From IMG/VR virus record IMGVR_UViG_2663763534_000001: 30,585 bases of DNA. One strand, 5' to 3'. Each line of letters starts with the position of its first letter. Within the stretch, counting starts at the first letter, position 1. Of the stretch, positions 1 to 30,386 are shown piece by piece. A program made the translations under genes and the position numbers. The notes beneath the pieces were generated by a model. It had not been told where the DNA came from, searched no databases, and was given only the letters and a program-made list of their open reading frames with translations. The stretch comes from a virus. Lineage: Duplodnaviria; Heunggongvirae; Uroviricota; Caudoviricetes.

Positions 1-28
1 CGTATAATGGGGAATTATGTGCTGATTT
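1..28. other. Telomere half-site: candidate hairpin end of a linear plasmid-prophage (half of the protelomerase target palindrome)
   Basis: Window begins cgtataatgg..tgtgctgat, which resembles from memory the right half of the N15 telRL palindrome (GCGTATAATGG....TGTGCTGATA). It lies 190 bp upstream of telN. The partner half is not in the window, as expected if the sequence starts at a hairpin apex. Confidence 0.5.
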
Positions 29-157
29 TTAGAACAAAGTCAAGGAACAAATTTTAACGTTCCGATATTGTGTTTTTGTTTATTATCCGTCATTATGTTC
101 TGTTAGTTTGTGGCTAAGTTAACGCGTTATTAGTTATCTTATTCTCAAATTGTGTTA

Positions 158-180
158 CGATAATCAGAGCTGATAATCAG
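158..180 (+). promoter_or_regulatory. Direct repeats GATAATCAG x2 (158..167, 171..180) just upstream of the telN RBS; candidate tos-type flanking repeat or operator
   Basis: Two 9-10 bp direct repeats 13 bp apart, ending 10 nt before the telN start. gctgat also occurs in the telomere half-site. Confidence 0.3.
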
Positions 181-190
181 GAGAGGAAAG

Positions 191-2104
191 ATGAGCAAAG
201 TAAAAATCGGTGAATTAATAAACTCACTTGTTAGCGATGTTGAGTCAATAGATAACTCTGACCGTCCTCAAGGGGAAAAAACAAAAAAAATAAAGGCTGT
301 TGCATTAAAATTTAAAAATGCATTATTTAATGATAAGCGAAAGTTTAGGGGGAAAGGATTAGAAAAAAGAATTACAGCCAACACATTCAATGCCTATATG
401 AGCAGGGCCAGAAAACGGTTTGATGATAAACTTCATCATAGCTTTGAAAAAAATATACATCGCCTATCTGAAAAGTATCCTTTATATAATGAGGAGCTAT
501 TGTCATGGCTTTCTCTACCTGCTGCCGATATTCGCCAGAGAATGTCAGCTTTACAGGCAAAATTAAAATTAATTCTCCCTTTATCAGAAGATTTATCTAA
601 TATCAGAATTGGTGATAACAAAAGTCATAATAAGTTATTAAAATTATCAAATAAATATAAAGAGTGGCAATTCGCCATATCTGATTTAACTAGCGATAAC
701 TGGAAAGATAAGCGCGATTATTTATATAAATTACTACAGCAAGGATCTGCCTTACTTGAAGAGTTGAATCAGCTAAAAGTTAACCATGAGATTCTCTATC
801 ATCTTCAACTAAGCCCTGCCGAACGCGCATCTATCCAGCAACGATGGGCGGACGTTCTGCACAATAAGAAACGTAACGTGGTGGTCATTGATTACCCTAA
901 ATATATGCAAGCTATTTACGATATTATAAATAGCCCTGCTACATTAAATAATCTAAACACTCGTTCAGGTATGGCTCCTTTGGCATTTGCACTTGCTGCA
1001 TTGTCAGGAAGACGAATGATTGAGATTATGTATCAAGGTACATTTACTGTTTCTGGTAAGTATACCGTTGATTTTTTAGGCCAAGCAAAAAAAAGAACTT
1101 CTGATGATATAACCAGAAAAATATATACATTATGCGAAGCAAAAACATTTGTTTATTTAATAAATGTACTTCGCTCATGCCCAGCAGCATCTGATTTTGA
1201 TGATGTCGTTAAAGGTTATGGAGATAACGACACACGCTCTGAAAACGGACGGATTAATGCCATATTAGCAAAGGCTTTTAACCCGTGGGTCAAATCATTT
1301 TTCAAAGATGACCGCCGTGTTTATAAAGATAGTCGTGCTATTTATGCCCGTATTGCGTATGAAATGTTTTTCCGCGTAGATCCTCGTTGGAAAAACGTAG
1401 ATGAGGATGTTTTCTTTATGGAAATTTTAGGCCATGACGATGAAAACACTCAATTACACTATAAGCAATTCAAGCTGGCCAACTTCTCAAAGACATGGAG
1501 GCCAAATACTGGAAACGAAAATACCAGGCTGGAAGCATTGCAGCAGCTTGATGACGAAATGCCAGGATTCGCCAGAGGAGATGCCGGGGTTCGTCTGCAT
1601 AACACAGTTAAGCAGCTGGTAGAGCATGACCCCTCTATAAAAATCACGAACAGCACTCTAAGAGCATTCAAATTTAGCCCTACAATGATTAGTCGATACC
1701 TGGAATTTGCTGCTGATGCTCTGGGGCAATTTGTTGGCGAAAATGGACAATGGCAGCTGAAAATAGATTCTCCAGAAATCGTTATGCCTGACGAAGAAGA
1801 GCTGGAAGCAATACCTGAACAGACGGATGAATTATCAGAGGATGACGATCTGGATGACGACGAAATTGAGATAGAGGAAGAGGAAGAGGAAGAGGAAGAG
1901 GAAGAGGAAGAGAGCGTAGAAGAACAGCAACCGCCCGCGCCTTCTTCACCTGTATCTAAGCCGGTATTTAAGCCTGTGAGAAATATTGGTGATGGCTCAT
2001 ACGTTGTTGAGTTTCATTATAATGGCCAGAATTATGCTTGGTCCGGCAGTGCAAACAGCCCTATATCAGCAATGCAGTTAGCATGGCTGACATATTTCGG
2101 ATAA
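191..2104 (+). CDS. telN: Protelomerase (telomere resolvase), TelN/TelK family
   Basis: 637-aa ORF with RBS aggagagg. Sequence is recognisably TelN-like along its length (MSKVKIGELIN..., RMIEIMYQG, ILGHDDENTQLHYKQFKLANF) with an acidic C-terminal linker. It sits next to the telomere half-site. Confidence 0.85.
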   Translation: MSKVKIGELINSLVSDVESIDNSDRPQGEKTKKIKAVALKFKNALFNDKRKFRGKGLEKRITANTFNAYMSRARKRFDDKLHHSFEKNIHRLSEKYPLYNEELLSWLSLPAADIRQRMSALQAKLKLILPLSEDLSNIRIGDNKSHNKLLKLSNKYKEWQFAISDLTSDNWKDKRDYLYKLLQQGSALLEELNQLKVNHEILYHLQLSPAERASIQQRWADVLHNKKRNVVVIDYPKYMQAIYDIINSPATLNNLNTRSGMAPLAFALAALSGRRMIEIMYQGTFTVSGKYTVDFLGQAKKRTSDDITRKIYTLCEAKTFVYLINVLRSCPAASDFDDVVKGYGDNDTRSENGRINAILAKAFNPWVKSFFKDDRRVYKDSRAIYARIAYEMFFRVDPRWKNVDEDVFFMEILGHDDENTQLHYKQFKLANFSKTWRPNTGNENTRLEALQQLDDEMPGFARGDAGVRLHNTVKQLVEHDPSIKITNSTLRAFKFSPTMISRYLEFAADALGQFVGENGQWQLKIDSPEIVMPDEEELEAIPEQTDELSEDDDLDDDEIEIEEEEEEEEEEEEESVEEQQPPAPSSPVSKPVFKPVRNIGDGSYVVEFHYNGQNYAWSGSANSPISAMQLAWLTYFG

Positions 2105-2115
2105 AGCATACGGTA

Positions 2116-2139
2116 AAGGCACCGAATTATCGGTGCCTT
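2116..2139. terminator. Hairpin between convergent telN and the minus-strand small-ORF operon; candidate bidirectional terminator
   Basis: 9-bp perfect stem aaggcaccg/cggtgcctt with 6-nt loop, directly after the telN stop. Confidence 0.45.
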
Positions 2140-2149
2140 GTTGTGTGGT

Positions 2150-2314
2150 CTACCTCGCCTGCCCCTTTTCGTCCTCATCCAACTTTCTGATGGCCGTAGA
2201 ATCAATACCCGCCGCCATACACACATCAGATGCAACAAACCACGGTTCGCCGTTAATCATCACTACACGAACCTGATGCTCTTCCTGAAAGGAAAAGACT
2301 GCTAACGCGCTCAT
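2150..2314 (-). CDS. Short Bro-N/antirepressor N-terminal-domain fragment (54 aa), possibly a truncated ant-like gene
   Basis: Strong RBS aggagg 5 nt before the ATG, and an ATGA overlap with the upstream ORF. Translation MSALAVFSFQEEHQVRVVMINGEPWFVASDVCMAAGIDS... matches the Bro-N hallmark (F.F....VR....GEPWFVA.DV) but stops after ~54 aa. Not in the ORF track (under 60 aa). Confidence 0.45.
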   Translation of the reverse strand: MSALAVFSFQEEHQVRVVMINGEPWFVASDVCMAAGIDSTAIRKLDEDEKGQAR

Positions 2315-2544
2315 TCAGCCTCCTTATCGTGCAGCAATTGCGACGAGAGCGATGCTGAATAACCCTGTGCTTCGTGTGTTAGCTCACACGCAATTTGAAG
2401 GAGTTTCCCTGCTTCTGAGAGATAAATCGACGCCTCACAACTGGAGATTGTCCGATGGGCTGATGATACGAGCGCATAGACCTGAGCCAGACGTTCATCC
2501 AACGATTCCAGCAGGCCAACAGTGTTCATTTTTACCTGATTCAT
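2311..2544 (-). CDS. Hypothetical small protein (77 aa)
   Basis: ORF with RBS gaggtgg. ATGA-coupled both to the upstream 54-aa ORF and to the downstream Bro-N fragment ORF. Confidence 0.4.
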   Translation of the reverse strand: MNQVKMNTVGLLESLDERLAQVYALVSSAHRTISSCEASIYLSEAGKLLQIACELTHEAQGYSASLSSQLLHDKEAE

Positions 2545-2705
2545 GCAGCCACCTCGCGCACCGGAATACGGGCAGACAATACCAGGACAAACCGGCTGGC
2601 GAACTGGCGACGAGCTTCCCGTTCAGATGACGCGATGGTGGAAAGATGATGGATGTGTGACTTTTTGTCTGTGCGAACGATTGCCGCAAATTTGAATTTG
2701 AACAT
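2541..2705 (-). CDS. Hypothetical small basic protein (54 aa), first gene of a three-ORF coupled mini-operon
   Basis: ATG at 2705 preceded by ggagtg. Reads MFKFKFAAIVRTDKK... and its stop overlaps the next ATG (ATGA). Not in the ORF track. Confidence 0.35.
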   Translation of the reverse strand: MFKFKFAAIVRTDKKSHIHHLSTIASSEREARRQFASRFVLVLSARIPVREVAA

Positions 2706-2866
2706 GGTATGCACTCCGTTTAATTGGTCGTGCTACCACCAGAGTTCCTACGCTCTATATGGCGGTAGCCCAGACGGGGGTAGGAATACCGGTAAACGAA
2801 GAAACCGGCCAGCTAAAAGCTGCCCCATCTGAGCCACCATAAATTTGGTGTACGCAGATTTTACAC

Positions 2867-2891
2867 ACAAAAAAACACGCTGGCGCGTGTT
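2867..2891 (-). terminator. Rho-independent terminator (minus strand)
   Basis: Hairpin aacacgc-tggc-gcgtgtt followed on the minus strand by a run of 7 T (plus-strand A7 at 2869..2875). Confidence 0.5.
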
Positions 2892-3000
2892 GTGCGCTTC
2901 ATTTACTCGGGTTCCTACGCCCGGCTACGGGATTTACCGTAGCGGAGTAAACTTTACCGTCAAAACGACGCGCACGTCAATAATTTGCAAAGACATTTTA

Positions 3001-3020
3001 CCCCGTGACCAGTCACGGGG
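3001..3020. repeat. Palindrome CCCCGTGAC-CA-GTCACGGGG, member of a dispersed GTGAC-N2-GTCAC family
   Basis: Perfect 9-2-9 inverted repeat. The same 12-bp core recurs at 7685..7698 and 12939..12950. A T-run starts 7 nt downstream, so it may also act as a terminator. Confidence 0.5.
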
Positions 3021-3081
3021 ACAGGTGTTTTTATAGTTTGCTTGAACGAGTGATCAGAAGTTGATCGTTAATCAAAGGCCA

Positions 3082-3369
3082 TTATTGATTAAGAGATTGG
3101 AAATACCTAACTAACTTACCGGCATCATCACATTTTTCTTTATCTTCGTCCTTAACATAGCCGCGACAAAAGGCTGAATAAAATTTTGCATTTTCAGAAG
3201 CAAAAGCAGCCGTCGAAAGGAGCAGCTCTTTGCATGACTCTTTTGATGCAGCATCGGGATTATTTTTACATGCAAGGTCCGCTGATGAGTTAATAACAGA
3301 AATGCTATCTTCCTGGGCATAAACCGCAGCAGAAAAGGCAAAACATAAAACAAAAATAAAACTCTTCAC
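3082..3369 (-). CDS. Small secreted cysteine-containing protein with signal peptide (95 aa)
   Basis: Likely GTG start after RBS aggaga. N-terminus MKSFIFVLCFAFSAAVYA-QE is a typical Sec signal with an AxA cleavage site. Mature part is rich in Cys, Asp and Lys. Confidence 0.5.
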   Translation of the reverse strand: MKSFIFVLCFAFSAAVYAQEDSISVINSSADLACKNNPDAASKESCKELLLSTAAFASENAKFYSAFCRGYVKDEDKEKCDDAGKLVRYFQSLNQ

Positions 3370-3396
3370 TTTATCTCCTGTAACAGTCATCACAAT

Positions 3397-3792
3397 TCAA
3401 TCAACTTTTTTAGCATCAGCCATACGATTCAACCAGAAATCAACAATCGGTTGCTCATCTACAGAATGTTTACCAGGTATAACTCGCCAGCTATCTTGCG
3501 AAAATCTGCCGTACTTACGCGGGAATAGGCCTTTCTTTATCTCCCGCCATGTACTAGGAAAACCATCCACAAAAGTACCAATTAACAGGAGAGGGACAAA
3601 AATCAGAGCTACAAACCATCGTGCAAGAAAGTGTTCAACAACAACATTTTCACCGTTGTAGTAATACGCATACGCATCCAATATGCGAATTTTCCTTACC
3701 TTAAAAATAGCCTTATGCTGATAACGACTTAACTTGATACGAATGTATCCCTTATCCAAAGGGGATTCGTATTTGTATGATTGAACAGCCAT
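3397..3792 (-). CDS. Hypothetical membrane protein (about 131 aa, one predicted TM helix)
   Basis: ATG directly after the upstream stop. Hydrophobic segment WFVALIFVPLLLIGTFV. Confidence 0.45.
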   Translation of the reverse strand: MAVQSYKYESPLDKGYIRIKLSRYQHKAIFKVRKIRILDAYAYYYNGENVVVEHFLARWFVALIFVPLLLIGTFVDGFPSTWREIKKGLFPRKYGRFSQDSWRVIPGKHSVDEQPIVDFWLNRMADAKKVD

Positions 3793-3794
3793 TT

Positions 3795-4121
3795 TTAACC
3801 CCACTCACCATCAGCAAACAAAGCGTTATACTCTGACAATGGTAGACGGTTGCCCTCGATGTAGAGATTCAGTTCATACTTCGTCTCCGGGTTTTCCTTG
3901 TCGGCTCGTTCCCAACGCTCAGCAGCCTTACGCGCCAATAATTCCACTGCTTTCAGATAATCCTCCGTACGGAACCAGCCAAAGATAAGGCCACGATCTG
4001 TTACAGCCCAGGCGACCTTTTTTTCTTCCTCCTGGATAGCCCTAATGCGTCGTTCGCATTCATCCCGGCAGAACTGCAGCTGACGGTAATCAAGTTTGTC
4101 CAAAAATGCAGTAGTAGACAT
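3795..4121 (-). CDS. Hypothetical protein (108 aa)
   Basis: ORF with strong RBS ggggag. Tightly packed with its neighbours in the operon downstream of repA. Confidence 0.5.
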   Translation of the reverse strand: MSTTAFLDKLDYRQLQFCRDECERRIRAIQEEEKKVAWAVTDRGLIFGWFRTEDYLKAVELLARKAAERWERADKENPETKYELNLYIEGNRLPLSEYNALFADGEWG

Positions 4122-4125
4122 ATTT

Positions 4126-4317
4126 TTACTCCCCGTTCACCGAAAATTCACGATAGAAACGTTTCCACATACGATAAGTCTGCGCAAATTGTTCACCACG
4201 AAACATCGCCTTCCTGGCCTTCATGTTTTCCTTGTGAGACTTTCGGTCTATGAACCAAAACCATTGCTGGAACACACAAAGCAAGAGACACAAAGATAAT
4301 ATCCACTCATTACCCAT
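4126..4317 (-). CDS. Hypothetical small membrane protein (63 aa)
   Basis: ATG 8 nt inside the repA 3 prime end. Hydrophobic N-terminus LSLCLLLCVFQQWFWF followed by a basic tail. Weak RBS. Confidence 0.3.
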   Translation of the reverse strand: MGNEWILSLCLLLCVFQQWFWFIDRKSHKENMKARKAMFRGEQFAQTYRMWKRFYREFSVNGE

Positions 4318-7300
4318 AGAAAGCGCCCTGCTCTTCGTAGCTGCATGAGCTATTCCCCGTAATGTATTCACGTAACCGCCGCAGCTCATTGCTGGAAAGG
4401 TGATCCATGAACTCTGTGAGGTACAGGGATGCAAACGTCATAGCTATGCTGGCTGATGACCATGATGACATAGTGGCCAACTCCTCACTGGAAAGCGCAC
4501 TCATCGCCCAGGACTCAGGTACAGCCACTGGCAACACGGCCAAAGCCTCAGAAATTACTGAATGAGGGGCGTTTTGAACCTGCTCGTTTGTGGATCGCGT
4601 TTTATCATCCATATATATATTGAGATCCAAATCGCGATCCATTTCGATGGCTGTCTTCTCGGCTTTACGCGTTTTTAGGGTTAGGCCATCTTTCTGACGC
4701 TGAACAAGAATATCCAGCATAAATGCCGCTGATTCAGGCTCAACAAAACGCAAGGTTGGACGCTTATCGCCGTCTCTGCCGCGACGTTTACCTGTTTTAA
4801 GGCCAAGAGAGTCGCAAATGTTTTTAAACAACGCTTCCGGCACTTTAGGCTTCCCTTTTGGCGTCATAAAACCACCAATGTGCAGAACGTTATTCAACAG
4901 GTCACGGCGTTCGGCTGTCATGAGGTTATCTCGAGCGAATTTGAGACGCTCCTGAGTCGCCTCGCCGGTCATAGTCTCAGGGTTGATACCGCAGTCGATA
5001 AAGTACTGCCGGAGAGTTGCTGATTTAAGCGCATAGAAACCGCGCGCCCCGACTTCAACAGTAGGAGTAGCTTTTACCTTGTGATCGATTATTCCAGGGA
5101 ATTTAGTTTTAAAGACATCATCAGCCTGCTCGCGAGTCATCGCGGTCACTACAAAATATTGCCACTGTCCCGCCTGACGGTATGCGTAGGTAAAATTGAT
5201 GGCTGCTTCTTCCCGGTCGTAACGACGAGCTGTTACCTCATCTAAAAGCATTGTTTCATAGCGGCGAACTTTGTCTCGAGCACCATCGAAATAGAATTTC
5301 AGCGTGCCTTCTTCAACCGGTAGTTTCAGTTCGTTTTCAATATCCCAGCGGACAAGTTTTGCCTGTTCTTCAAGCGTCAGCGCGCGTTTTTTTAGCAGTT
5401 CTTCACGCTCTGATTCTTGTGGAGTTTCTGTATTGAGGTGCAGATCCAGTGTCTGTTCCCACACAATATCCCGCGCTTCTTTACGCAGATCTTTACCGAT
5501 ATCATTCGCAGCATAATCGGTGGCCAGCGGTGATACCTTATAACCGTCGCTGTGCATGATGCAGATCATGTTGCTGGCGTAGTCGTTACGCGCAGTCGCT
5601 TCAATTGCGGCTGCTTTAATTTTCATCCTGGTAAAGTCGGTATTGGCCACCCCCATTGATATACGGTCGCCATCGAAAACGACATCCGTAAGTTCACCGT
5701 TCATACCTGCGGTAGCAAGCAATGCCTGGGCGAATGCTCGTTCTATTTTTTGCGGGTCAGTTTCACGTTTTGCACGAGCTTTATCAAAGCCGATAATAAA
5801 TTCTTTTGCTGTACGGTCGCGGCGTAGCATTTGCACTGCGTCGCTGGGTACAACTTCACCACAGAACATGCCGAAATGACGGTCAAAATGTTTTTGCTCA
5901 ATCGACACGCCGGATGAAATAGACGGGCTATAAATCAGGCCGTCGTATTTTTTGACCATCTTTTTCGGTTGATTGGTAAATGCTTCAACTTCTGGCTCTG
6001 GTTTGTTTTTCTGGTTTACACACAGAAATTTCTTACCAGGAAAATGCATTCTCAGGGTGGCTGTCACATCTTCTGCAAAGGTGGAGCTGTCGGTGGCCAA
6101 CATGATTTTTTCGCCATCCGATACAGCTTTCACCACCTCGGTCATGATGCGATCTTTTTCTGTATAAAAAACCCGGATTGGCTCACCTGTTTCGCGGTTG
6201 CGAACATCAACAGGTAATTCAATTACGTGGATCTGCAGCCATGCCGGTAAACCTAGTTCTTCACGGCGTTTCATAGCCAGTTCAGCCAGGTCAACCAGTA
6301 GATCGTTCGCATCAGCATCCACCATGATTGGGTGTTGTTCCGTTCTGGCCAGCGCGTCAATTAGCGTATTGAATACAGCAACCGGGTTTTCCATAGCCCG
6401 ACCGGAAAGAACGGCACGTAGCCCTTGTGTGGCCTCGTCAAAGCCAAAATAGTCGTGCTGGCGCATCAAAGGTTGCCAGCAGTTTTTAACAATCGAGTTT
6501 ATGCAGATGGTCAGTTTACTGGCGTATGGAGCCATTTCCTGATAGCCAGGGTCCTGATAGTGCAGGATATCGGCTTTTACACCTTTTCCTTCTGTCATCA
6601 TTTCCCACAGGCCACCAATAAGGGAGACACGGTGAGCAACAGAGATACCACGTTCTGAGCTATGCATTAACGGTCGTAACAATCCAGTAGATTTGCCGGA
6701 ACCCATACCAGCACGGACGATGACTATCCCCTGTAGTGATTGCACGTACTTCAGGACATCATCGGTCATTACCGAAGTTTCAAAACGCTTATAGGTGATA
6801 TGTTGAGGGCGTTTATTGGGATCAGTTATGCGTTCGCTGAAAGAGCGCGGAGCCTGGGCAATACGGCACTTTTTATTCAGGCGACGGGCAATGTGGTCTT
6901 TTACCGTAGCGCGATAGATATTTTCCAGTCCCATTTCACGCAGAACGATGCAGAACATGTTAAATAAATCTGACGGACTGTTAGGAACCGGACAGGTTAG
7001 CATGCCAATATCCACCGCTCTCAGCAGCTCTTTGGCAAAAGTACGACGGTTATCCCGCTTAATTGTCTTCAGGCGGTTGAGCGTCAGAGATAGCAAATCA
7101 GTACCGGTTTTCAGGCGGTTTGCTGTTGCAAATAGTTGACGTGCTGTTTCACGAAGTCCACGTAGTTTGTGCAGGTCGTTGAAGTCACTGCACTCCATTT
7201 GCGGATCGTCTTCAAAAGTTGGATAGACGCAGCGGACATCGTTGAATTTCGATAAGATTTCATAGCCAGTCCGCAGGCCGGTATTCCCTTTTCCTTCTGT

Positions 7301-8305
7301 GGCAGATTTCCGGTCATTATCCAGTGCGCAGGTGATTTTTGCCGCCGGGTACATGTTTACCAGTTGTTCCACAACATGAACCATGTTGTTAGCGGATACA
7401 GCGACAACCACAGCGTCAAAGCGTTTATCTTTTTTCGTGGCAAGCCAGATGGATGCACCAGTAGCAAAACCTTCTGTAACAGCGATGTTTTGCGCCCCTT
7501 TCAGCTCACCGATAACAAAGCAGGCACCGACGAAATCACCGCTGGTTACTGCGCTGGTCTGGTATTTCCCACCTTGTTTGTCGATTCGCTGCCAACCCAC
7601 AATACGACCATCATAACGACCGTCTAGGTGAGCCAGAGGGATAGCCATATATGTGGTTGGCCCCCGGCTCCATTTCGCACTGTCGTGACTGGTCACGCGA
7701 CGCACATCACATGAACTAAAAACGTCACGAATACCTTTTTTAATCGCATATGGCCATGAGCCGTCTTCAGCCTGAGCATGTTCCCACGCGCTGTGGAATG
7801 CCAGCCATCCCAGCAAACGTTCATGGTCCATTTGGTTGTTTTTCAGGTCATTAATTCGTTTTTGTTCTTCACGGCGACGACGTGCTTCGGCCTGACGTTC
7901 TATTCTTTCCCGTTCTTCTTCTGGTTGTGCGACCACGGTCGCATTATTCCGTTGTTGCTCACGGCGATATTCAGAAAACAGGAAGGAGAAACCGCTCCAT
8001 GAGCCAGCATCGCTGCCTTTATGGACGAAGTTAATGAACGGGTAATCAATCCCTTTGCTGTGTTCCAGCCTGGAGTAAATTTCTACGCGTCCTTTCAGGC
8101 TCTTTTCGAGAGCTTCTGGAGATGTTTTATTGTATGAAGAGTAACGCTCAACCCCCCCGCGAGGGTTGAGTTGGATGTTGTCGGAACAGGCAGGCCAGTT
8201 GATACCAGCCATCTGTGCCAGCTCGGTTAGTTCATCCCGTGCTGCTTCAATTAGCGAGAACGGATCGCTGCCAAAGCGATCCGCATAGAAATCGTTTAAT
8301 GTCAT
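4310..8305 (-). CDS. repA: Multifunctional replication protein RepA (primase plus helicase), N15 RepA-like
   Basis: 1331-aa ORF with a Walker A motif (VRAGMGSGKST). Size and position (between the telN side and cB) match N15 repA. Confidence 0.88.
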   Translation of the reverse strand: MTLNDFYADRFGSDPFSLIEAARDELTELAQMAGINWPACSDNIQLNPRGGVERYSSYNKTSPEALEKSLKGRVEIYSRLEHSKGIDYPFINFVHKGSDAGSWSGFSFLFSEYRREQQRNNATVVAQPEEERERIERQAEARRRREEQKRINDLKNNQMDHERLLGWLAFHSAWEHAQAEDGSWPYAIKKGIRDVFSSCDVRRVTSHDSAKWSRGPTTYMAIPLAHLDGRYDGRIVGWQRIDKQGGKYQTSAVTSGDFVGACFVIGELKGAQNIAVTEGFATGASIWLATKKDKRFDAVVVAVSANNMVHVVEQLVNMYPAAKITCALDNDRKSATEGKGNTGLRTGYEILSKFNDVRCVYPTFEDDPQMECSDFNDLHKLRGLRETARQLFATANRLKTGTDLLSLTLNRLKTIKRDNRRTFAKELLRAVDIGMLTCPVPNSPSDLFNMFCIVLREMGLENIYRATVKDHIARRLNKKCRIAQAPRSFSERITDPNKRPQHITYKRFETSVMTDDVLKYVQSLQGIVIVRAGMGSGKSTGLLRPLMHSSERGISVAHRVSLIGGLWEMMTEGKGVKADILHYQDPGYQEMAPYASKLTICINSIVKNCWQPLMRQHDYFGFDEATQGLRAVLSGRAMENPVAVFNTLIDALARTEQHPIMVDADANDLLVDLAELAMKRREELGLPAWLQIHVIELPVDVRNRETGEPIRVFYTEKDRIMTEVVKAVSDGEKIMLATDSSTFAEDVTATLRMHFPGKKFLCVNQKNKPEPEVEAFTNQPKKMVKKYDGLIYSPSISSGVSIEQKHFDRHFGMFCGEVVPSDAVQMLRRDRTAKEFIIGFDKARAKRETDPQKIERAFAQALLATAGMNGELTDVVFDGDRISMGVANTDFTRMKIKAAAIEATARNDYASNMICIMHSDGYKVSPLATDYAANDIGKDLRKEARDIVWEQTLDLHLNTETPQESEREELLKKRALTLEEQAKLVRWDIENELKLPVEEGTLKFYFDGARDKVRRYETMLLDEVTARRYDREEAAINFTYAYRQAGQWQYFVVTAMTREQADDVFKTKFPGIIDHKVKATPTVEVGARGFYALKSATLRQYFIDCGINPETMTGEATQERLKFARDNLMTAERRDLLNNVLHIGGFMTPKGKPKVPEALFKNICDSLGLKTGKRRGRDGDKRPTLRFVEPESAAFMLDILVQRQKDGLTLKTRKAEKTAIEMDRDLDLNIYMDDKTRSTNEQVQNAPHSVISEALAVLPVAVPESWAMSALSSEELATMSSWSSASIAMTFASLYLTEFMDHLSSNELRRLREYITGNSSCSYEEQGAFYG
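4591..4641. other. Candidate replication origin element inside the 3 prime end of repA
   Basis: 9-bp inverted repeat tggatcgcg / cgcgatcca flanking an AT-rich spacer containing (AT)5, with several GATC sites. N15 ori is reported to lie in the 3 prime part of repA. Confidence 0.3.
7685..7698. repeat. Palindrome CGTGAC-TG-GTCACG (GTGAC-N2-GTCAC family) inside repA
   Basis: Perfect 6-2-6 inverted repeat sharing its core with the sites at 3001 and 12939. Confidence 0.45.
7928..7943. other. sopC-like centromere palindrome TGCGACC-AC-GGTCGCA (copy 1, inside repA)
   Basis: Perfect 7-2-7 palindrome with the same architecture as the F sopC SopB-binding repeat (TGGGACC-AC-GGTCCCA). Five copies in the window. 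Confidence 0.6.
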
Positions 8306-8550: not shown

Positions 8551-9147
8551 TCATCTACCCTCAACCATGAATGATTTGATCGTTCCGACTATTTGGTGAA
8601 CAAATTCAAGATCGCTTTTCCTGAAGATGGCGCGTTGTGAGTTTGTTCCATCCAGATAGTAATTTTCATCATCAAAACGGGCCAGGCGCTGGATAGTGAT
8701 ATTTCCTGCAGTATCACGAACCAGAACATCCTCGCCGGGGACCAGTTCCAGCGCAGAATCGACCAGGAGAAAATCGCCTGGCTGATAGTTTCCCTGCGTA
8801 AGATTGCTGATAGTTAACGCATACACAGTATTGCGCTGGCTGATGAATGGCAGGAATCGCTCAGTATTTGGAACCTGTCCCGGCTTCCACTCTTCATCCG
8901 GCCCACTTTCAGTTGTGCCAATAACAGGAATGCGATCAGGGTCATATTCTGTCCCATATAGCACCCAATGCACTGGCTTGCGTAAGCACTTAGCCAGGGC
9001 AATACCTATCTCCAGTGACGGCATTACGTCGCCACGTTCTAAGTTTTGGACGCCTGCTATAGAGATATCGACAGCCTCAGCAACTTCTCGCAACGTCAGC
9101 TTCATCTCTAAACGGCGTGCTTTCAGTCGTTCGCCTCGTGTTTTCAT
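8551..9147 (-). CDS. cB: Prophage repressor, CI/CB-like (HTH XRE N-domain plus LexA/CI-like C-domain)
   Basis: 198-aa ORF with N-terminal HTH (LTLREVAEAVDISIAGVQNLERG) and a CI-like C-terminal fold. Divergent from the cro-like gene across an operator-bearing intergenic region. Confidence 0.8.
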   Translation of the reverse strand: MKTRGERLKARRLEMKLTLREVAEAVDISIAGVQNLERGDVMPSLEIGIALAKCLRKPVHWVLYGTEYDPDRIPVIGTTESGPDEEWKPGQVPNTERFLPFISQRNTVYALTISNLTQGNYQPGDFLLVDSALELVPGEDVLVRDTAGNITIQRLARFDDENYYLDGTNSQRAIFRKSDLEFVHQIVGTIKSFMVEGR

Positions 9148-9169: not shown

Positions 9170-9185
9170 TTATAGCTGGCTATAA
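9170..9185. promoter_or_regulatory. Operator palindrome TTATAGC-TG-GCTATAA (candidate CB/Cro operator, OR site 1)
   Basis: Perfect 7-2-7 inverted repeat in the 91-bp cB-cro intergenic region. Confidence 0.6.
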
Positions 9186-9193
9186 AATTTATT

Positions 9194-9211
9194 TATTATA
9201 GCTGGCTTTAA
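9194..9211. promoter_or_regulatory. Second operator (imperfect copy: ttatagctggcttta) overlapping a TATAAT-like box
   Basis: Repeat of the ttatagctggc half-site 26 bp downstream of site 1. tataat hexamer at 9226..9231. Confidence 0.45.
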
Positions 9212-9238
9212 TTGTTGTTTATTGTTTATAATAACAAC

Positions 9239-9460
9239 ATGAAACCAGAAGAACTTATTCGCCATTTTGGCAGTGTAGAAAAAGCAGCGGCAGGGGTAGG
9301 TGTAACACCCGGAGCTGTTTACCAATGGTTAACCGCTGGAGAGATTCCTTCATTGCGGCAAAGCGATATTGAAGTTCGTACTGCTTATAAGCTGAAGAGT
9401 GACTTTACAACTCGGCGGGTAAAGCAGTCGATTAAGGAGAGTCGTAAGCGTGGAGCTTGA
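9239..9460 (+). CDS. cro: Cro-like HTH regulator
   Basis: 73-aa ORF divergent from cB with an HTH segment (GSVEKAAAGVGVTPGAVYQWLTAGE). ATG at 9239 preferred over the TTG at 9212 given in the ORF track; RBS is weak. Confidence 0.65.
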   Translation: MKPEELIRHFGSVEKAAAGVGVTPGAVYQWLTAGEIPSLRQSDIEVRTAYKLKSDFTTRRVKQSIKESRKRGA

Positions 9461-10160
9461 GTATATACGCAGCTGCGTCTCTACGGCATTGGCTGATGTT
9501 CATTATCGCCAGCGTGGCATTCTGGAGGTCCAGCTTGAGCAGATGCGTCTCGGTAGATCAGGACGGTTTAACAATAAACCAGTCCGGTCAATCAGTGTGG
9601 GGGATGATAACTCATACGAAGTGTCCGTTCCTGCTGAGCCGGTTAGATTCCATCAGGGGAAAACATTTAAACAATCATCAATGTTGCTCACTGATATTGA
9701 TTTTCAGAGCGCCAGCTGGCGCAGGGCTATTGGTCAGTTGAATAACGAGGAATCAGCCTGGCTTTATTATTGCTACGGATGCAAGCCTGATTACAACAAT
9801 GATGTGATTGTTTGTCAGTGGTTATGGCTTGATTTTCTGGTTGCTCATTCGGGGGGCGGCTTTAAAAAAATGAAGGCCTCCACGAAAAAAGCCATGCGGA
9901 AATTGATTTATTACGCGGCACAACAGGTTAAATCAGAACTTACGTGTGCTGAGGCAGTTGATGAGAGAGAACAGGACAGGCATCTGAGTTTTCTACTGAA
10001 TATATCTATTGATAGCTGGAGACAAGATTATAAAGAACGCTGGCTTTTAATTAAGTCGCGATGTCTGAGCTTAAATCGAACCGCATTATTAAATGCGGCG
10101 GAGAAGCGCAGTGAAATCATCAAACGCCATCGGGCAGGAAGTGCCATTCTGCCTTTGTAA
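9450..10160 (+). CDS. Putative late-gene regulator (Q-like antiterminator candidate by position)
   Basis: 236-aa ORF overlapping the cro stop, in the position of N15 Q (cB-cro-Q). No motif confidently recognised; call is by synteny. Confidence 0.35.
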   Translation: MELEYIRSCVSTALADVHYRQRGILEVQLEQMRLGRSGRFNNKPVRSISVGDDNSYEVSVPAEPVRFHQGKTFKQSSMLLTDIDFQSASWRRAIGQLNNEESAWLYYCYGCKPDYNNDVIVCQWLWLDFLVAHSGGGFKKMKASTKKAMRKLIYYAAQQVKSELTCAEAVDEREQDRHLSFLLNISIDSWRQDYKERWLLIKSRCLSLNRTALLNAAEKRSEIIKRHRAGSAILPL

Positions 10161-11925: not shown

Positions 11926-12600
11926 ATGAAATTTTCTAAATTTTCTGAGTTGGTGAATCGTATTTTGTTGAATCGTATTTTGTCCAACAACCACAGCGAT
12001 CGTCGCGATATGGATGTAACGATCGTTGTTCATTCGCCTGGCAGCATTGGTTCAACACCTTCAGTTGAGGTTCAGTCAATTCACGCTGGTTTTGATTGGG
12101 ATTCCGGGAAAGTGCTGATTTTCCCAGCACAGCCACTGACCACGCTAACACCAGAACAGATTACTGATATCACGGATAGTGTGCGCAAAGGTCAGTCTTG
12201 GCACGCATATCAGGAATACAAGAAGCATAAAGAGCAGTTGGAAAAATTGTCGATTGAGTTGGAATCAGCCAAAAATCACATAGCAGAACTGGAAGCCAAA
12301 CCTGTAAGCCAAACTTACAAGTTAACTTTTGAGCAATGGCTGGAACAGCAGCATGACAAAATTGATGTTGATTGTGGATGTGTAAGTACAGAAATGCTTA
12401 TGCACTGGATAAGGGTCGCGTATGAGGCTGGCAACTCTCCGGTAACTCCGGATGGTCATATTCAGTTTTCTGTTTCACTTCCTGCAGCATGTGGTGGAGA
12501 TAAATATTTTATTGATGGTGTATTTCAACCTTTGAGATATGAGCGTGACTGTGAAAAAGCGGTTGTGGCCGCTGGCGGTGTAGTTAATTGGGTTAAGTAA
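11926..12600 (+). CDS. Hypothetical protein (224 aa)
   Basis: ORF with RBS aaaggtg. Contains a coiled-coil-like segment (KHKEQLEKLSIELESAKNHIAELEA). Confidence 0.5.
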   Translation: MKFSKFSELVNRILLNRILSNNHSDRRDMDVTIVVHSPGSIGSTPSVEVQSIHAGFDWDSGKVLIFPAQPLTTLTPEQITDITDSVRKGQSWHAYQEYKKHKEQLEKLSIELESAKNHIAELEAKPVSQTYKLTFEQWLEQQHDKIDVDCGCVSTEMLMHWIRVAYEAGNSPVTPDGHIQFSVSLPAACGGDKYFIDGVFQPLRYERDCEKAVVAAGGVVNWVK

Positions 12601-16382: not shown

Positions 16383-16879
16383 TGCAGTCATCATTACGCA
16401 AAGCTGTCACAGCTGCTATTGGTGGCGGGGCTATTGCCATAGCGTCTATGCTCATCACTGGCCCAAGTGGTAACGATGGTCTGGAAGGTGTCAGTTACAT
16501 ACCATACAAAGATATTGTTGGCGTATGGACTGTATGTTACGGGCACACTGGAAAAGACATCATGCTCGGTAAAACGTATACCGAAGCAGAATGCAAAGCT
16601 CTCCTGAATAAAGACCTTGCCACTGTTGCCAGACAAATTAATCCGTACATCAAAGTCGATATACCGGAAACAACGCGCGGCGCTCTTTACTCGTTCGTTT
16701 ACAACGTGGGCGCTGGTAATTTCAGAACATCGACGCTTCTTCGCAAAATAAACCAGGGCGATATCAAAGGCGCATGTGATCAGCTACGTCGCTGGATATA
16801 TGCTGGCGGTAAGCAATGGAAAGGCCTGATGACTCGTCGTGAGATTGAGCGTGAAGTCTGTTTGTGGGGTCAACAATGA
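16379..16879 (+). CDS. SAR endolysin (T4-type lysozyme, GH24) with N-terminal signal-anchor-release domain
   Basis: Gly/Ala-rich N-terminal SAR segment ([20 protein letters not shown]) and catalytic E-x8-D-x5-T triad ([17 protein letters not shown]). Confidence 0.8.
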
Positions 16880-17343
16880 GCAGGGTAACCGCGATTATCT
16901 CCGCTCTGGTTATCGGCATCATCGTCTGCTTGTCGTGGGCTGTTAATCATTACCGTGATAACGCCATCGCCTACAAAGAGCAGCGCGACAAAAACGCCAG
17001 AGAGCTGAAGCAGGCGACCGCCACCATTACTGACATGCAGCAGCGCCAGCGTGCTGCTGATGCACTCGATGCTAAATACACGAAGGAGTTAGCCAATGCG
17101 AAAGCTGAAAATGATGCTCTTCGGCGTAAGCTTGATAATGGTGGTCGGGTGCTCGTCAAAGGAAAATGCCCTGTGCCAGCCTCAGCCAAAACCTCCAGCG
17201 CCTCCGGCATGGGCAATGATGCCACCGTCGAACTCTCTTCAGTTGCTGGACGAAACGTTCTCGGTATCCGGGACGGAATTATCCGCGACCAAACAGCACT
17301 GAGAACGCTTCAGGAATACATCAATACGCAATGCCTGAATTAA
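16876..17343 (+). CDS. Rz: i-spanin Rz
   Basis: ATGA overlap with the endolysin. N-terminal TM segment, coiled-coil region, and an embedded Rz1 ORF. Confidence 0.75.
17096..17302 (+). CDS. Rz1: o-spanin Rz1 (lipoprotein), embedded in the +1 frame of Rz
   Basis: RBS ggag. Lipobox LIMVVGC-SS followed by a Pro-rich segment ([16 protein letters not shown]). Wholly inside Rz. Confidence 0.7.
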
Positions 17344-17384
17344 TCCCTCTGTATCAAAAACGAACTCAATTTGTTGGATAGTGA

Positions 17385-17696
17385 ATGAAAATTTATATTG
17401 CCGGGCCAATGACGGGATATGAGAACTTTAATCGTGACGCCTTTAATAAAGAGGCAGATCGTTTGTCACGACATGGTCACTCTGTCTTGAATCCAGCCAC
17501 TTTGCCTAATGGTCTGACACAACGTGAATACATGGATATTTGCTTTGCAATGCTTCGTTGTGCGGATGCTATTTTGATGCTTCCTGGCTGGAAAGCGTCT
17601 GCTGGAGCAACTGCTGAGTATCATTACGCATACAAGATGGAGATGCCGGTATTCACTACGCTGAATTACCCGCCAGCTTGTTCCTCTGCAGTATAA
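17385..17696 (+). CDS. Nucleoside 2-deoxyribosyltransferase-like / DUF4406-family protein
   Basis: 103-aa protein beginning MKIYIAGPMTG, a motif I associate with this family. Confidence 0.45.
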   Translation: MKIYIAGPMTGYENFNRDAFNKEADRLSRHGHSVLNPATLPNGLTQREYMDICFAMLRCADAILMLPGWKASAGATAEYHYAYKMEMPVFTTLNYPPACSSAV

Positions 17697-17743
17697 AAAT
17701 CTCTTTGTTTCTCGTGTGCGATCGTGGTCGCTCGCTAAATTCC

Positions 17744-17954
17744 GCGCTGCATCGTCGCCGTATTCCCGCATTAACTATGACCGTAGCCCGACGGGGAACT
17801 CCTCTGCGCGAGTGTGCGGAAATAATCAAAAACGATGCACACCGGGTTTTTACCGCGCTAATGATTCGCGGGTTTGTCCCTCATGCTCGCTAGTCCTGTG
17901 CGAGGGTGGAAGAAACAGGGCATGTATTCAGGAGCGTGCGACCGTGGTCGCACG
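17744..17954 (+). repeat. Direct repeat copy A (~211 bp, ~95 percent identical to copy B) ending in a sopC-like site
   Basis: Aligns base for base with 19528..19738 with about 10 substitutions. Contains a sopC-like palindrome at its 3 prime end. Confidence 0.8.
17937..17952. other. sopC-like centromere palindrome (copy 4)
   Basis: TGCGACC-GT-GGTCGCA within repeat copy A, 25 bp upstream of the cassette gene start. Confidence 0.6.
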
Positions 17955-17976
17955 GTATCTTTGTCAGGAGGTTTTG

Positions 17977-18837
17977 ATGAAAGAGTTGCAAAAAATTAAT
18001 TCAATAATGGAACGATTAATTGCTCTTGAGCTTAAGCTGGCCGATTGCGGAAAACTGTGTGCTGAAAAGCAAAATGAGCTTTACCGGGAATTTGTTACAA
18101 TCGTAAGTGAGCTGATGCCAATTGTTAATAACTGCCTAATGACATCCAGATTTTTTAATGTCGATGCTACTACATCCAGAAAATTTACTGTGAAAATTCA
18201 AGAAAGAGTTTCTGGTAGTGTGACAAGAGAGATGGCTGAACAGTTTGTGGCAATGAGTAATAAAACAAAAAGAAAAAAGGCATTGCTTGTAACAGTAAAT
18301 CAGCTTTCAGGGCGCGTTGACTTTCAGGTCAGACAGGGTGGGCGTGTACTGGTAAACGATGCGTTCGTTGGACGTTGCTTTAGTCCTTACTCGATGAAAT
18401 ATGATGTTGATGCAGATGATCAGGATATCAGCATTTCCTGGAAATCTGAGACAGCAGGGATTGTATTAACAGCAGAGTTGTTGAGTGATGATAAAAATGA
18501 TGGCCAGCATCATTTGGACGAAAAAAATCATATTTCTGAAATTTGTATGAAGCCACGTAGTGGAATGACTTTATTGTCGCGAACTCTTGCTGCTGGCTTT
18601 TCTGCAACGGAGAAACGTGTGCTTCTGGTAGTGCCTGAAGATGCAGATATTCGTCCACTGAATGGCTGTGATGTTATTAGTGCAAAAACATTGCATACCC
18701 GCATCATGCCTGTACCGGATGTGGTCATCATTGATGATATTGAGAAATGCAAGTCTGTTTCCTCAACTGCCACAATCAAACGAATTTTACGTTGTAGCAC
18801 GTCGGCTGTTGTATTCCAGAAGCAGTTACATAACTAA
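17977..18837 (+). CDS. Hypothetical protein (286 aa), first gene of a low-GC two-gene cassette; no family recognised
   Basis: ATG at 17977 with strong RBS caggagg. The longer ORF-track version (from 17716) runs through the repeat element and is unlikely. Coding sequence is AT-rich compared with the flanking lambda-like genes. Confidence 0.55.
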   Translation: MKELQKINSIMERLIALELKLADCGKLCAEKQNELYREFVTIVSELMPIVNNCLMTSRFFNVDATTSRKFTVKIQERVSGSVTREMAEQFVAMSNKTKRKKALLVTVNQLSGRVDFQVRQGGRVLVNDAFVGRCFSPYSMKYDVDADDQDISISWKSETAGIVLTAELLSDDKNDGQHHLDEKNHISEICMKPRSGMTLLSRTLAAGFSATEKRVLLVVPEDADIRPLNGCDVISAKTLHTRIMPVPDVVIIDDIEKCKSVSSTATIKRILRCSTSAVVFQKQLHN

Positions 18838-18961
18838 CCAGTTTTGTTTTGCAGAACATCCTCAACTAAAAGCTTATAGAAAGAGAGCCTGAGATATTTT
18901 TTTTCTGTCTCTCGTAGTTGTTTATTTTTTCGAACAGGCTTACAACTTACAGGATATATAC

Positions 18962-19411
18962 ATGCAAGAAGAAGCAAAGAAAATTCTTGTTGATTTATTG
19001 AACAATGCCAGCGATGGAATTGATTCCGCCATTGCATTCAGTCAGGCTCAGATTCCGGATGTTGTTCATCAGTTGCTGGTATGGAATATAGTTGATAGTC
19101 TGATTAAAACATTAATAGCCATTTCAACAATCCCGCTGGTTATTTGGTTTATGAAGAAACAGTGCAAAAAAGTTGAAATTGGTAAGTTCGATAATGACGG
19201 ACGCTCATGTGATAATGGACAGCCTAAATACAAACCGACTATGATTTGGGAAAGTGACGGTAGGTTAAGTGCTTTTGTCTTACCATTAGTAGCAGTTTTT
19301 ATTCTATGGTTAAGTTTTATTATTTCTATAGTAGCCAATATGACATGGTTAAAAATCTGGCTGGCACCTAAGTTATATCTAATCGAATACGCAGCATCAC
19401 TAATTAAATAG
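18962..19411 (+). CDS. Hypothetical integral membrane protein (149 aa, 2-3 predicted TM helices)
   Basis: Hydrophobic segments (LIKTLIAISTIPLVIWFM, AFVLPLVAVFILWLSFIISIVA). AT-rich. Weak RBS. Confidence 0.5.
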   Translation: MQEEAKKILVDLLNNASDGIDSAIAFSQAQIPDVVHQLLVWNIVDSLIKTLIAISTIPLVIWFMKKQCKKVEIGKFDNDGRSCDNGQPKYKPTMIWESDGRLSAFVLPLVAVFILWLSFIISIVANMTWLKIWLAPKLYLIEYAASLIK

Positions 19412-19527
19412 CCCATTACAAAAGCCATTCGCTACTGAGTGGCTTTGATAATGGCTTATACCCTACACGGGATAACTTAACTAATATCCCTTTTAACGGA
19501 TAAAGGTATTCAAGCCTGACACATTAT

Positions 19528-19738
19528 GCGCTGCATCGTCGCCGTATTTCCGCATTAACTATGACCGTAGCCTGACGGGGAACTCCTCTGCGCGAGTGTG
19601 TGGAAATAATCAAAAACGATGCATACCGGGTTTTTACAGCGCTAATGATTCGCGGGTTTGTCCCCCATGCTCGCCAGCTCTGTGCGGGGGTGGAAGAAAC
19701 AGGGCATGTATTCAGGAGCGTGCGACCGTGGTCGCACG
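19528..19738 (+). repeat. Direct repeat copy B (~211 bp) ending in a sopC-like site
   Basis: Partner of 17744..17954. Lies ~80 bp upstream of cos. Confidence 0.8.
19721..19736. other. sopC-like centromere palindrome (copy 5)
   Basis: TGCGACC-GT-GGTCGCA within repeat copy B. Confidence 0.6.
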
Positions 19739-19819
19739 ACGCTGGTCTGTCAGACATTGAATTCATTGCGAATAAACCAGAACGCCTGCGGGTCCTTTCC
19801 GGCGATCCGGCAGGCTACG

Positions 19820-19831
19820 GGGCGGAAGGCG
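19820..19831 (+). other. cosN-like cohesive-end site (variant of the lambda GGGCGGCGACCT)
   Basis: Flanks match the lambda cos region as I recall it (caggctacg | gggcggaaggcg | cgcgggttttcgctatttatgaaaattttccggtttaaggcg). The 12-nt core differs from canonical lambda at about 5 positions. Confidence 0.55.
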
Positions 19832-19928
19832 CGCGGGTTTTCGCTATTTATGAAAATTTTCCGGTTTAAGGCGTTTCCGTTCTTCTTCGCCGTAACTTAA
19901 TGTTTTTATTTAAAACACCCCCTGAAAA

Positions 19929-19983
19929 GAAAGGAAACGACAGATGCTGAAAACGGGCTTTTTGTCCTCTGTCGTTTCCTTTC
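19929..19983. other. cosB-like region with inverted Nu1-binding R elements
   Basis: Inverted repeat gaaaggaaacgacag ... ctgtcgtttcctttc as in lambda cosB (R3/R2), immediately upstream of Nu1. Confidence 0.55.
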
Positions 19984-20008
19984 TCTGTTTTTGTCCGTGG
20001 AATGAACA

Positions 20009-20528
20009 ATGGAAGTCAACAAAAAGCAGCTGGCTGATATTTTCGGTGCGAGTATCCGTACCATTCAGAACTGGCAGGAGCAGGGAATGCCCGTTCTGCG
20101 AGGCGGTGGCAAGGGTAATGAGGTGCTTTATGATTCTGCCGCCGTCATAAAATGGTATGCCGAAAGGGATGCTGAAATTGAGAACGAAAAGCTGCGCCGG
20201 GAGGTTGAAGAACTGCGGCTGGCCAGCGAGGCAGATCTTCACCCCGGAACACTTGAATTTGAGCGCCATCGCCTGACTCGTGCTCAGGCGACGGCGCAGG
20301 AACTGAAAAATGCCAAAGAATCGGCTGAAGTGGTGGAAACCGCATTCTGTACTTTCGTGCTGTCGCGTATAGCAAGGGAAATATCCAGTATTCTCGACGG
20401 TATTCCTCTGTCGGTGCAGCGACGTTTTCCTGAGCTGGATAACCGGCATATTGATTTCCTGAAACGGGATATCATCAAAGCCATGAACAAAGCAGCCGCG
20501 CTGGATGAACTGATACCGGGGTTGCTGA

Positions 20529-20554
<26 letters not shown>
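20009..20554 (+). CDS. Nu1: Terminase small subunit
   Basis: 181-aa protein (MEVNKKQLADIFGASIRTIQNWQEQGMPVLRGGGKGNEVLYDSAAVIKWY...) near-identical to lambda Nu1 as I recall it, with an N-terminal HTH. Confidence 0.9.
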
Positions 20555-24235
<3,681 letters not shown>

Positions 24236-24255
<20 letters not shown>

Positions 24256-30259: not shown

Positions 30260-30386
30260 ATGAAGTTANNNNNNNNNNNNNNNNNNNNNNNNNNNNNNNN
30301 NNNNNNNNNNNNNNNNNNNNNNNNNNNNNNNNNNNNNNNNNNNNNNNNNNNNNNNNNNNNNNNNNNNNNNNNNNNNNNNNNNNNNN
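30260..30386. other. Assembly gap (127 N)
   Basis: Run of n characters. Removes the T 3 prime end and the H 5 prime end. Confidence 0.99.

Follow-up and report, generated by a model that had tools for sequence, protein, structure and literature searches.

A 30.6-kb viral scaffold that very probably begins at the telL hairpin telomere of an N15-like linear plasmid prophage

Does IMG/VR record IMGVR_UViG_2663763534_000001 begin at the physical end of a linear replicon, or only where an assembly happened to stop? The window, by which we mean the whole 30,585-nt stretch of DNA analyzed, has a protelomerase gene close behind its first base, and the original prediction took this start for an N15-type hairpin telomere beside telN. 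Judged from its sequence, the window very probably covers the leftmost ~30.6 kb of an Escherichia/Shigella linear plasmid prophage that is N15-like (Ravinvirus-type) and ~42-47 kb long in all, and the first base of the window lies 1 nt inside the telL hairpin telomere. Every feature of a telL end and of an N15-like linear prophage that can be tested on sequence appears to be present, and the predicted telomere is upheld by a symmetry axis 1 nt away, an intact enzyme, the gene order, an internal cos and relatives that end or fold back at the same axis. By N15 nomenclature the end is telL, the telN-proximal end, because PhiR46_1, which is colinear with the window, is annotated telL...ParB, ParA...telR. 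We infer that this end of the molecule is covalently closed. The feature is correct but already known, as near-identical public sequences exist, one of them with explicit annotation of both telL and telR.

The first letters of the window carry half of a protelomerase target. Window 1-27 (CGTATAATGGGGAATTATGTGCTGATT) is identical at 22 of 27 positions to the telN-proximal arm of N15 telRL (positions 2-28), much as predicted for the first ~28 nt, and it keeps intact half of the TACGCGCGTA core, the remainder of the 22-bp telO arm and the outer GTGCTGAT block. The tel palindrome arm itself is CGTATAATGGGGAATTATGTGCTGAT (window 1-26), and its first base lies 1 nt past the dyad axis. Read from the axis, the N15 telRL arm is G|CGTATAATGGACTATTGTGTGCTGATA (AF064539). 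We took the position of the N15 axis from the GenBank annotation of AF064539, in which the prophage-forming cut falls at 24802/3; around it the 56-bp telRL of N15 reads ...CCCATTATACGC|GCGTATAATGGACTATTGTGTGCTGATA, where the bar marks that cut. Positions 1-10 of the window (CGTATAATGG), which have no strand of their own, are the axis-proximal half of a 22-bp telO-type palindrome and are identical to positions 2-11 of the N15 telO half. The outer arm block ATTATGTGCTGAT (14-26, + strand) is the equivalent of the outer inverted repeat in the 56-bp N15 telRL, where its counterpart, ATTGTGTGCTGAT, stands at the same offset with one base different, and all 17 distinct E. coli-clade sequences that cover the block have it unchanged. 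The axis base G, which would precede position 1, is missing from the window, and otherwise the arm is complete. The N15/window consensus CGTATAATGGNNNATTNTGTGCTGAT has a single occurrence in the window and none in 100 dinucleotide-preserving shuffles with 2 mismatches permitted. The telN ATG follows the axis at a distance of 191 nt in each of the 17 distinct clade sequences that reach the axis, and at 192 nt in N15. The tel core with its telO half, the outer arm block at the N15 offset and a terminus at the dyad axis are thus all found together at the start of the window.

The axis is fixed independently of N15, because two relatives, pAMSC3 and YDC107_1, fold back on it and a third, pPEC011-4, stops there. 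pPEC011-4 (NZ_JBRAXZ010000005; 99.6% identical) terminates exactly on the axis G, and pAMSC3 (NZ_CP031108; 99.5% identical over 1-2200) and YDC107_1 (CP025712; 98.1% identical) were assembled through the end as perfect fold-backs, each with two inverted telN copies around ...ATAATTCCCCATTATACGC|GCGTATAATGGGGAATTAT.... These three and PhiR46_1, relatives 98-99.6% identical to the window, all show ...CCCATTATACGC|GCGTATAATGGG... around the axis, that is, the full palindrome. Five IMG/VR contigs with the same arm run 21-51 nt past the axis as perfect palindromes, and such overshoots are the usual short-read behavior at a hairpin. The partner telR next to sopAB lies outside our window, the right end of which falls in tail genes after a scaffold gap, and it is seen in relatives. 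PhiR46_1 (PV340565) is annotated with a telL site at 1-22, then ParB and ParA, and a telR site at 46269-46290. An isolate genome (IMG 2734482591) has the two ends on separate contigs: the first closes with the sop region and a telR fold-back, and the second, 99.3% identical to window 1-4300, opens with a telL fold-back followed by telN.

The same start could have been produced by a mere assembly break at an unresolved telRL, the DNA being circular or virion-derived with sopA-telRL-telN continuous. De Bruijn graphs can break at palindromes, and MARGA_3 (L005) and three IMG/VR loci (L011-L013) are assembled straight across sopA|telRL|telN. Those same records, however, show that the junction can be traversed, as the true junction palindrome is only 42-54 bp long with unique flanks, and 'circular' junction records of this kind could have come from joining both ends through the shared telO. 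A hairpin end leads one to expect just such a stop, 1 nt from the axis, other ends in the clade overshoot as perfect fold-backs, and virion DNA would end at cos, yet in the window cos is joined and internal. We therefore consider an assembly break quite improbable and keep to the hairpin telomere, with the provision that the exact first base of the window was set by the assembler or a trimming step rather than by the physical end.

Public records of the clade bear the marks of the same ends. At least 10 further plasmid records begin or end 0-200 nt from the axis, and about a dozen contain the tel-telN region twice in inverted orientation, among them NZ_CP031108 (27,197 bp), NZ_LT906558 (61,544), NZ_CP019258 (75,007), CP088810 (81,175) and CP088430 (91,525). 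Most of these five are labelled circular, as are several unit-length records of 45-47 kb. The five look like assembly artefacts, fold-backs or dimers, of linear DNA with hairpin ends, and the circular label of the relatives may stem from false circularization through the shared palindrome. Comparing L005 (2470-2499), L007, L011, L012 and L015 with L013 and L037 (PhiR46_1 46240-46290), we also observed that the telR (sop-side) arm exists in two forms, the symmetric ...ATCAGCACATAATT... and ...AACGAAACATAATT..., the latter without the outer GTGCTGAT block, so that the telRL of many relatives is a perfect palindrome for only 42 bp and asymmetric further out. A scan of genome contigs for the tel arm returned only single chance matches in unrelated MAGs, and a TelN-based search of viral contigs for related loci was dominated by the poly-Glu pattern of the protein and gave only two distant loci.

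Immediately behind the arm, and where the prediction had placed it, lies telN (191-2104, + strand), which starts with ATG at 191 and encodes an intact protelomerase of 637 aa. Its product matches four protelomerase Pfam domains (TelK_N, muzzle, ResT/TelK catalytic and stirrup, E 1e-25 to 1e-50; PF22853, PF20849, PF16684 and PF20818) and the TelK-DNA structure (PDB 2V6E; E 8.6e-295 over residues 1-536), and is 79% identical to N15 TelN and 76% to TelK. The catalytic tyrosine is kept, since Y424, within the LHYKQF motif, stands opposite the residue changed in the N15 mutant TelN(Y425F) of PMC12624138, and R275 and K300 are among the invariant columns. An intact protelomerase gene with its catalytic tyrosine thus adjoins tel. 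A clade-conserved Shine-Dalgarno sequence, AGGAGAGG (179-186, + strand), stands 4 nt ahead of the ATG. A sigma-70 scan of 1-2400 returned no + strand promoter upstream of telN; a candidate picked by eye, TTGTGT(68-73)-17-CATTAT(91-96), which N15 keeps as TTGTGT-16-TATTAT, is under the scan threshold. An Rfam scan of the same 1-2400 gave nothing real, the one match being to a snoRNA at E 0.97.

The linker that precedes the C-terminal domain of the protein contains a poly-Glu run, encoded by a perfect (AGAGGA)x6.7 hexamer array at 1873-1912 in telN. Across relatives the telN CDS measures 1884 to 1926 nt, and the chief difference of PhiR46_1 from the window is that it has four Glu less; the array resembles a length polymorphism that is prone to slippage. 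The region of telN that holds it has been reported to be dispensable for telomere resolution and end protection (PMC12624138).

The rest of the map follows the order of an N15-like prophage. After telN come leftward small genes (BRO-N fragment, gp31-like and Icd-like) and then repA, cB and cro, followed by Q, exonuclease, methylase, lysis genes, a joined cos, Nu1/A terminase, portal, and head and tail genes. The repA-type replication gene (4310-8305, - strand; 1331 aa) is convergent with telN, has Toprim_3 and Herpes_ori_bp-type helicase matches, and is annotated as primase or CyRepA1 in relatives. A cB-like prophage repressor with an HTH_3 domain match (8551-9147, - strand) is followed by a cro-like gene (9212-9460), after which comes a Q-like gene (9450-10160). 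The criterion used in PMC10432266 asks that telN and repA converge within 10 kb and that a cI/cB-like repressor lie upstream of repA, and this is the arrangement found here.

Three smaller features of this arm deserve mention. All that stands downstream of telN is an ORF of 54 aa (165 nt; 2150-2314, - strand) encoding the BRO-N fragment; at this place YDC107_1 has a full BRO-family gene of 777 nt, and the 795-nt gene 30 occupies the equivalent place in N15, from which it follows that the window and its closest relatives carry a deletion downstream of telN. In the divergent cB-cro intergenic region (9170-9211), a 16-bp palindrome occurs twice, 26 nt apart (TTATAGCTGGCTATAA and TTATAGCTGGCTTTAA), and these are probably operators of the CB repressor. 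A 15-nt tandem repeat, TTGTTGAATCGTATT, is present in 2.3 copies with a 94% match at 11950-11983, at the start of an ORF (11926-12600) that belongs to PHROG families without an assigned function.

The position of cos tells which form of the genome was assembled. A joined lambda-type cos region (19815-20008, + strand) adjoins a Nu1-like ORF directly downstream (20009-20554), with the terminase large subunit next to it (20529-22454). An exact-type search of the window for lambda cosN gave no match, and cos was recognized by reading the sequence: the cosB/Nu1 side is nearly identical to lambda, and a cosN-like 12-mer reads GGGCGGAAGGCG where lambda has GGGCGGCGACCT. Because cos is joined at ~19.8 kb and the sequence stops at tel, the assembled molecule is the plasmid-prophage permutation, with cos closed and internal and tel terminal, and not the virion map, relative to which it is circularly permuted.

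The packaging and head module (16389-25000) shares ~96% identity with lambdoid E. coli phages that integrate (PhiR70_1, mEp332, Kati), and PhiR46_1, which among telomere phages is closest on the left arm, departs from the window beyond 19.7 kb, which suggests that structural modules are exchanged in mosaic fashion between telomere phages and lambdoid prophages. We considered whether the scaffold might be a chimera of an N15-like left part and lambdoid heads, given the 96% lambdoid identity at 16.4-25 kb, and rejected this, as several plasmid records are colinear across the junction. PhiR46_1 covers window 1-19.7 kb, and the Shigella sonnei plasmid NZ_CP061364, which starts at window nt 10, covers 14.0-30.3 kb at 98.5%, both colinearly, so the window is not chimeric; the same 14.0-30.3 kb are matched colinearly at 98.4% by CP088556, a plasmid of E. 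coli. A run of 118 N, a scaffold gap, lies at 30269-30386 within the tail genes, and the window stops 199 nt later in a tape-measure-like ORF. A gap of this kind and an end inside an ORF mean that the source is an uncurated draft scaffold.

This last point bears on a second alternative, in which the element would be an N15-like remnant, integrated or defective, and the start of the window would come from a curator's cutting or rotation, not from biology. Starts of that kind do occur, as the ends of PhiR46_1 were evidently set by annotators, with the full 22-bp telO written at both ends. The N run, however, marks our source as uncurated, and telN, repA and cB are all intact, which argues against a defective remnant. 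Integration with flanking host DNA, which the prediction had named among the findings that would overturn it, has no support in the sequence: the 30.6 kb hold no host DNA and no integrase was seen in them. The element is present in 17 of 5426 complete E. coli genomes, and all 23 matching places are on plasmid records (23/23, 0 chromosomal). An integrated or defective remnant is thus extremely unlikely, and an extrachromosomal linear prophage remains our reading.

The region between tel and telN also carries repeats of the kind expected around a protelomerase target. We identify the tos-like repeats as the ATTRTGTKYY/RGAACA motifs at 14-158, which by sequence comparison appear to be mirrored across the axis, and not as the GATAATCAG pair discussed below. 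On the telN side, ATTRTGTKYY is present in four direct copies on the + strand (14-23, 67-76, 92-101 and 149-158). The copy at 14-23 belongs to the tel arm, those at 67-76 (ATTGTGTTTT) and 92-101 (ATTATGTTCT) came from a repeat-family search, and the fourth, ATTGTGTTAC at 149-158, sits in the block best conserved between the clade and N15. That block, ATTGTGTTACGATA (149-162), is invariant in 20/20 distinct aligned sequences, including N15, MStein-2023a and L026, and is contained in tosROC-2, the right primer for amplifying the N15 telRL region (PMC2847241). Region 81-102 is a degenerate second copy (73%) of tel arm 3-24. The putative tos-like motif RGAACAAA occurs twice at 31-52 on the - strand (AGAACAAA at 31-38 and GGAACAAA at 44-51), inverted relative to the ATTRTGTKYY copies, and is conserved in N15 as GAGAACATAA / CAGAACAA. 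The pattern [AG]GAACA[ACT]A is found 2 times in 1-190 against 0.04 expected, and 4 of the 16 + strand occurrences of TT[AG]TGT in the window fall inside 1-190 against 0.10 expected (P ~4e-6, for a motif chosen post hoc). The same motif, as AGAACAYAA, forms many repeats on the sop side of the axis in relatives, and N15 carries it at corresponding positions.

What, then, are the GATAATCAG repeats that the prediction had noticed upstream of the telN RBS? They are exact at 159-167 and 172-180, the only two places in the window where this sequence occurs. Some exact 9-mer stands twice within 30 nt at about 10 other loci of the 30.6 kb too, and the duplication taken alone is weak evidence. The two copies (159-180, + strand) form an imperfect dyad, GATAATCA-GAGC-TGATAATC (159-178), that abuts the RBS. 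In most relatives (22/28 clade loci) the copies have only 7 nt (GATAATC) in common. The dyad exists in two variants: ATCAG..CTGAT (...GATAATCAGAGCTGATAATCAGG...) at 6 loci with 6 different upstream backgrounds, the window included, and ATCCG..CGGAT (...GATAATCCGAGCGGATAATCAGG...) at 22 loci with 17 backgrounds; mixed variants were not found among the 28 loci. The two variable bases are mirror-complementary (A..T or C..G), so the ATCnG-AG-Cn'GAT symmetry is kept and the direct repeat is reduced to 7 nt. As the paired base change preserves symmetry and not repeat identity, it is the dyad, not the direct repeat, that is conserved, and on these paired variants we rejected the direct-repeat reading of 159-180. 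The covariation amounts to one coupled event, and sites 5 nt apart are tightly linked regardless. As RNA, 159-178 folds into a weak hairpin of -3.6 kcal/mol in the window (z -0.4) and -5.8 kcal/mol when the variant is C..G (z -1.2), which does not surpass shuffled sequences, and a search for further copies of the dyad in the window found none.

Two other identities could be proposed for the GATAATCAG copies, namely tos-type direct-repeat protein-binding sites, the first of the roles that the prediction had offered, or a Fur-like box. An exact 9-mer repeat with 13-nt spacing beside the RBS invites the former, and TGATAATCA (171-179) is the center of the Fur-box consensus, of which the textbook form is GATAATGATAATCATTATC. 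The tos role does not hold up: no such dyad is present in N15, in Enterobacter phage MStein-2023a or in L026, whose telomeres are resolved without the GATAATCAG motif, the pair was not found on the sop side, and the motif that is mirrored across the axis is a different one. Because these three do without it, the dyad is not needed for telomere resolution. A Fur box at 159-180 was rejected, as the best alignment matches 10/19 positions in the window and 9/19 in most relatives, and both identities are opposed by the complementary covariation and by the lack of further copies in the window. We therefore regard them as unlikely and best read the pair as a short dyad, specific to the clade, that belongs to the leader or promoter region of telN and seemingly lies outside the TelN target. 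The dyad could act as an operator or as a weak leader hairpin, and it may be a regulatory site, the other role that the prediction had named. That GATAATCn-GAGC-n'GATAATC is a so far undescribed regulatory element of the PhiR46_1/YDC107_1-like E. coli clade is a tentative and rather doubtful proposal; if true, the dyad would be an operator or leader hairpin setting protelomerase dosage at a telomere-proximal promoter. A search on telN autoregulation found nothing usable in the literature consulted, and the Ravin laboratory is said to have treated telN expression in Russian-language work.

Taken with the biology of N15 and phiKO2, these features would fit the following course of events. After infection, the genome would circularize at cos, as is established for both phages. 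A TelN dimer would then bind the telRL palindrome, make staggered cuts around the axis (the stagger of TelK/TelN cuts is 6 bp) and rejoin each strand to its own complement, resolving telRL into two covalently closed hairpins, telL beside telN and telR beside sopAB. Replication would proceed bidirectionally from an internal origin in repA, the duplicated telL-telL and telR-telR palindromes would be resolved likewise, and TelN bound at the ends would also shield the hairpins from SbcCD. In the source assembly, the partner end would be expected as ...sopB-sopA-(~460 nt)-CATAATTCCCCATTATACGC. Cleavage-rejoining by TelN and resolution after replication are established for N15, phiKO2 and PY54 (PMC2847241, PMC10612081), and bound TelN protects hairpins from SbcCD/Mre11-Rad50 through its N-terminal and catalytic parts (PMC12624138).

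The value of this result lies in annotation, as the contig end is to be read as a genuine replicon terminus and the scaffold as part of a linear N15-like phage-plasmid, not of a broken or circular plasmid. The missing remainder should amount to ~12-16 kb, with tail genes, sopBA and telR. Many public records of the clade appear to be mislabelled as circular or to be fold-back dimers (27-92 kb), and this affects censuses of plasmids and phage-plasmids. Telomere phages are widespread (PMC12042878), and N15-like repA-telN loci are abundant in Enterobacteriaceae (210/271 loci; PMC10432266). For telomere-phage biology there is nothing new here except the small clade-specific dyad before telN.

Among known systems, N15 (AF064539) shares with the window the TACGCGCGTA core, the 22-bp telO half, the outer GTGCTGAT block and the GAACA/TGTGTT repeat field, as well as its neighbors, namely the antirepressor region, repA, cB and a cos with lambda-like heads. 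It differs at 5/27 arm positions (a GGA/ACT spacer, A/G at position 17 and T/A at position 27), its nucleotide identity over tel-telN is only 73%, it has another leader without the GATAATCnGAGCn'GATAATC dyad before the RBS, and its poly-Glu linker is shorter than that of the window. The closest relatives, PhiR46_1, YDC107_1, pAMSC3 and pPEC011-4, share the telL arm and are 98-99.6% identical over window 1-2200. PhiR46_1 and YDC107_1 nevertheless differ from the window by single bases in the arm, with GGGAAATT where the window has GGGGAATT, and carry the C..G variant of the dyad; YDC107_1 retains the full-length BRO gene (777 nt) after telN, whereas the window and PhiR46_1 have the 165-nt fragment, and PhiR46_1 has another head/tail module past 19.7 kb. 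Klebsiella phage phiKO2 (TelK/telRL; AY374448; 2V6E) has an enzyme of the same family (76% identity) and the same tel-telN layout, and the structure of TelK is the model for dimer binding and hairpin formation, but its host genus is different, its protelomerase has a divergent C-terminal region and its telRL is annotated as 50 bp. PY54 and vB_YenS_P840 (Tel/pal) share the 10-bp central TACGCGCGTA (PMC3540006), a hairpin-ended plasmid prophage and an adjacent protelomerase gene; they differ in having a 42-bp perfect palindrome with a separate flanking inverted repeat, and their nucleotide similarity to the window is patchy, reaching 67% over 290 nt of tel.
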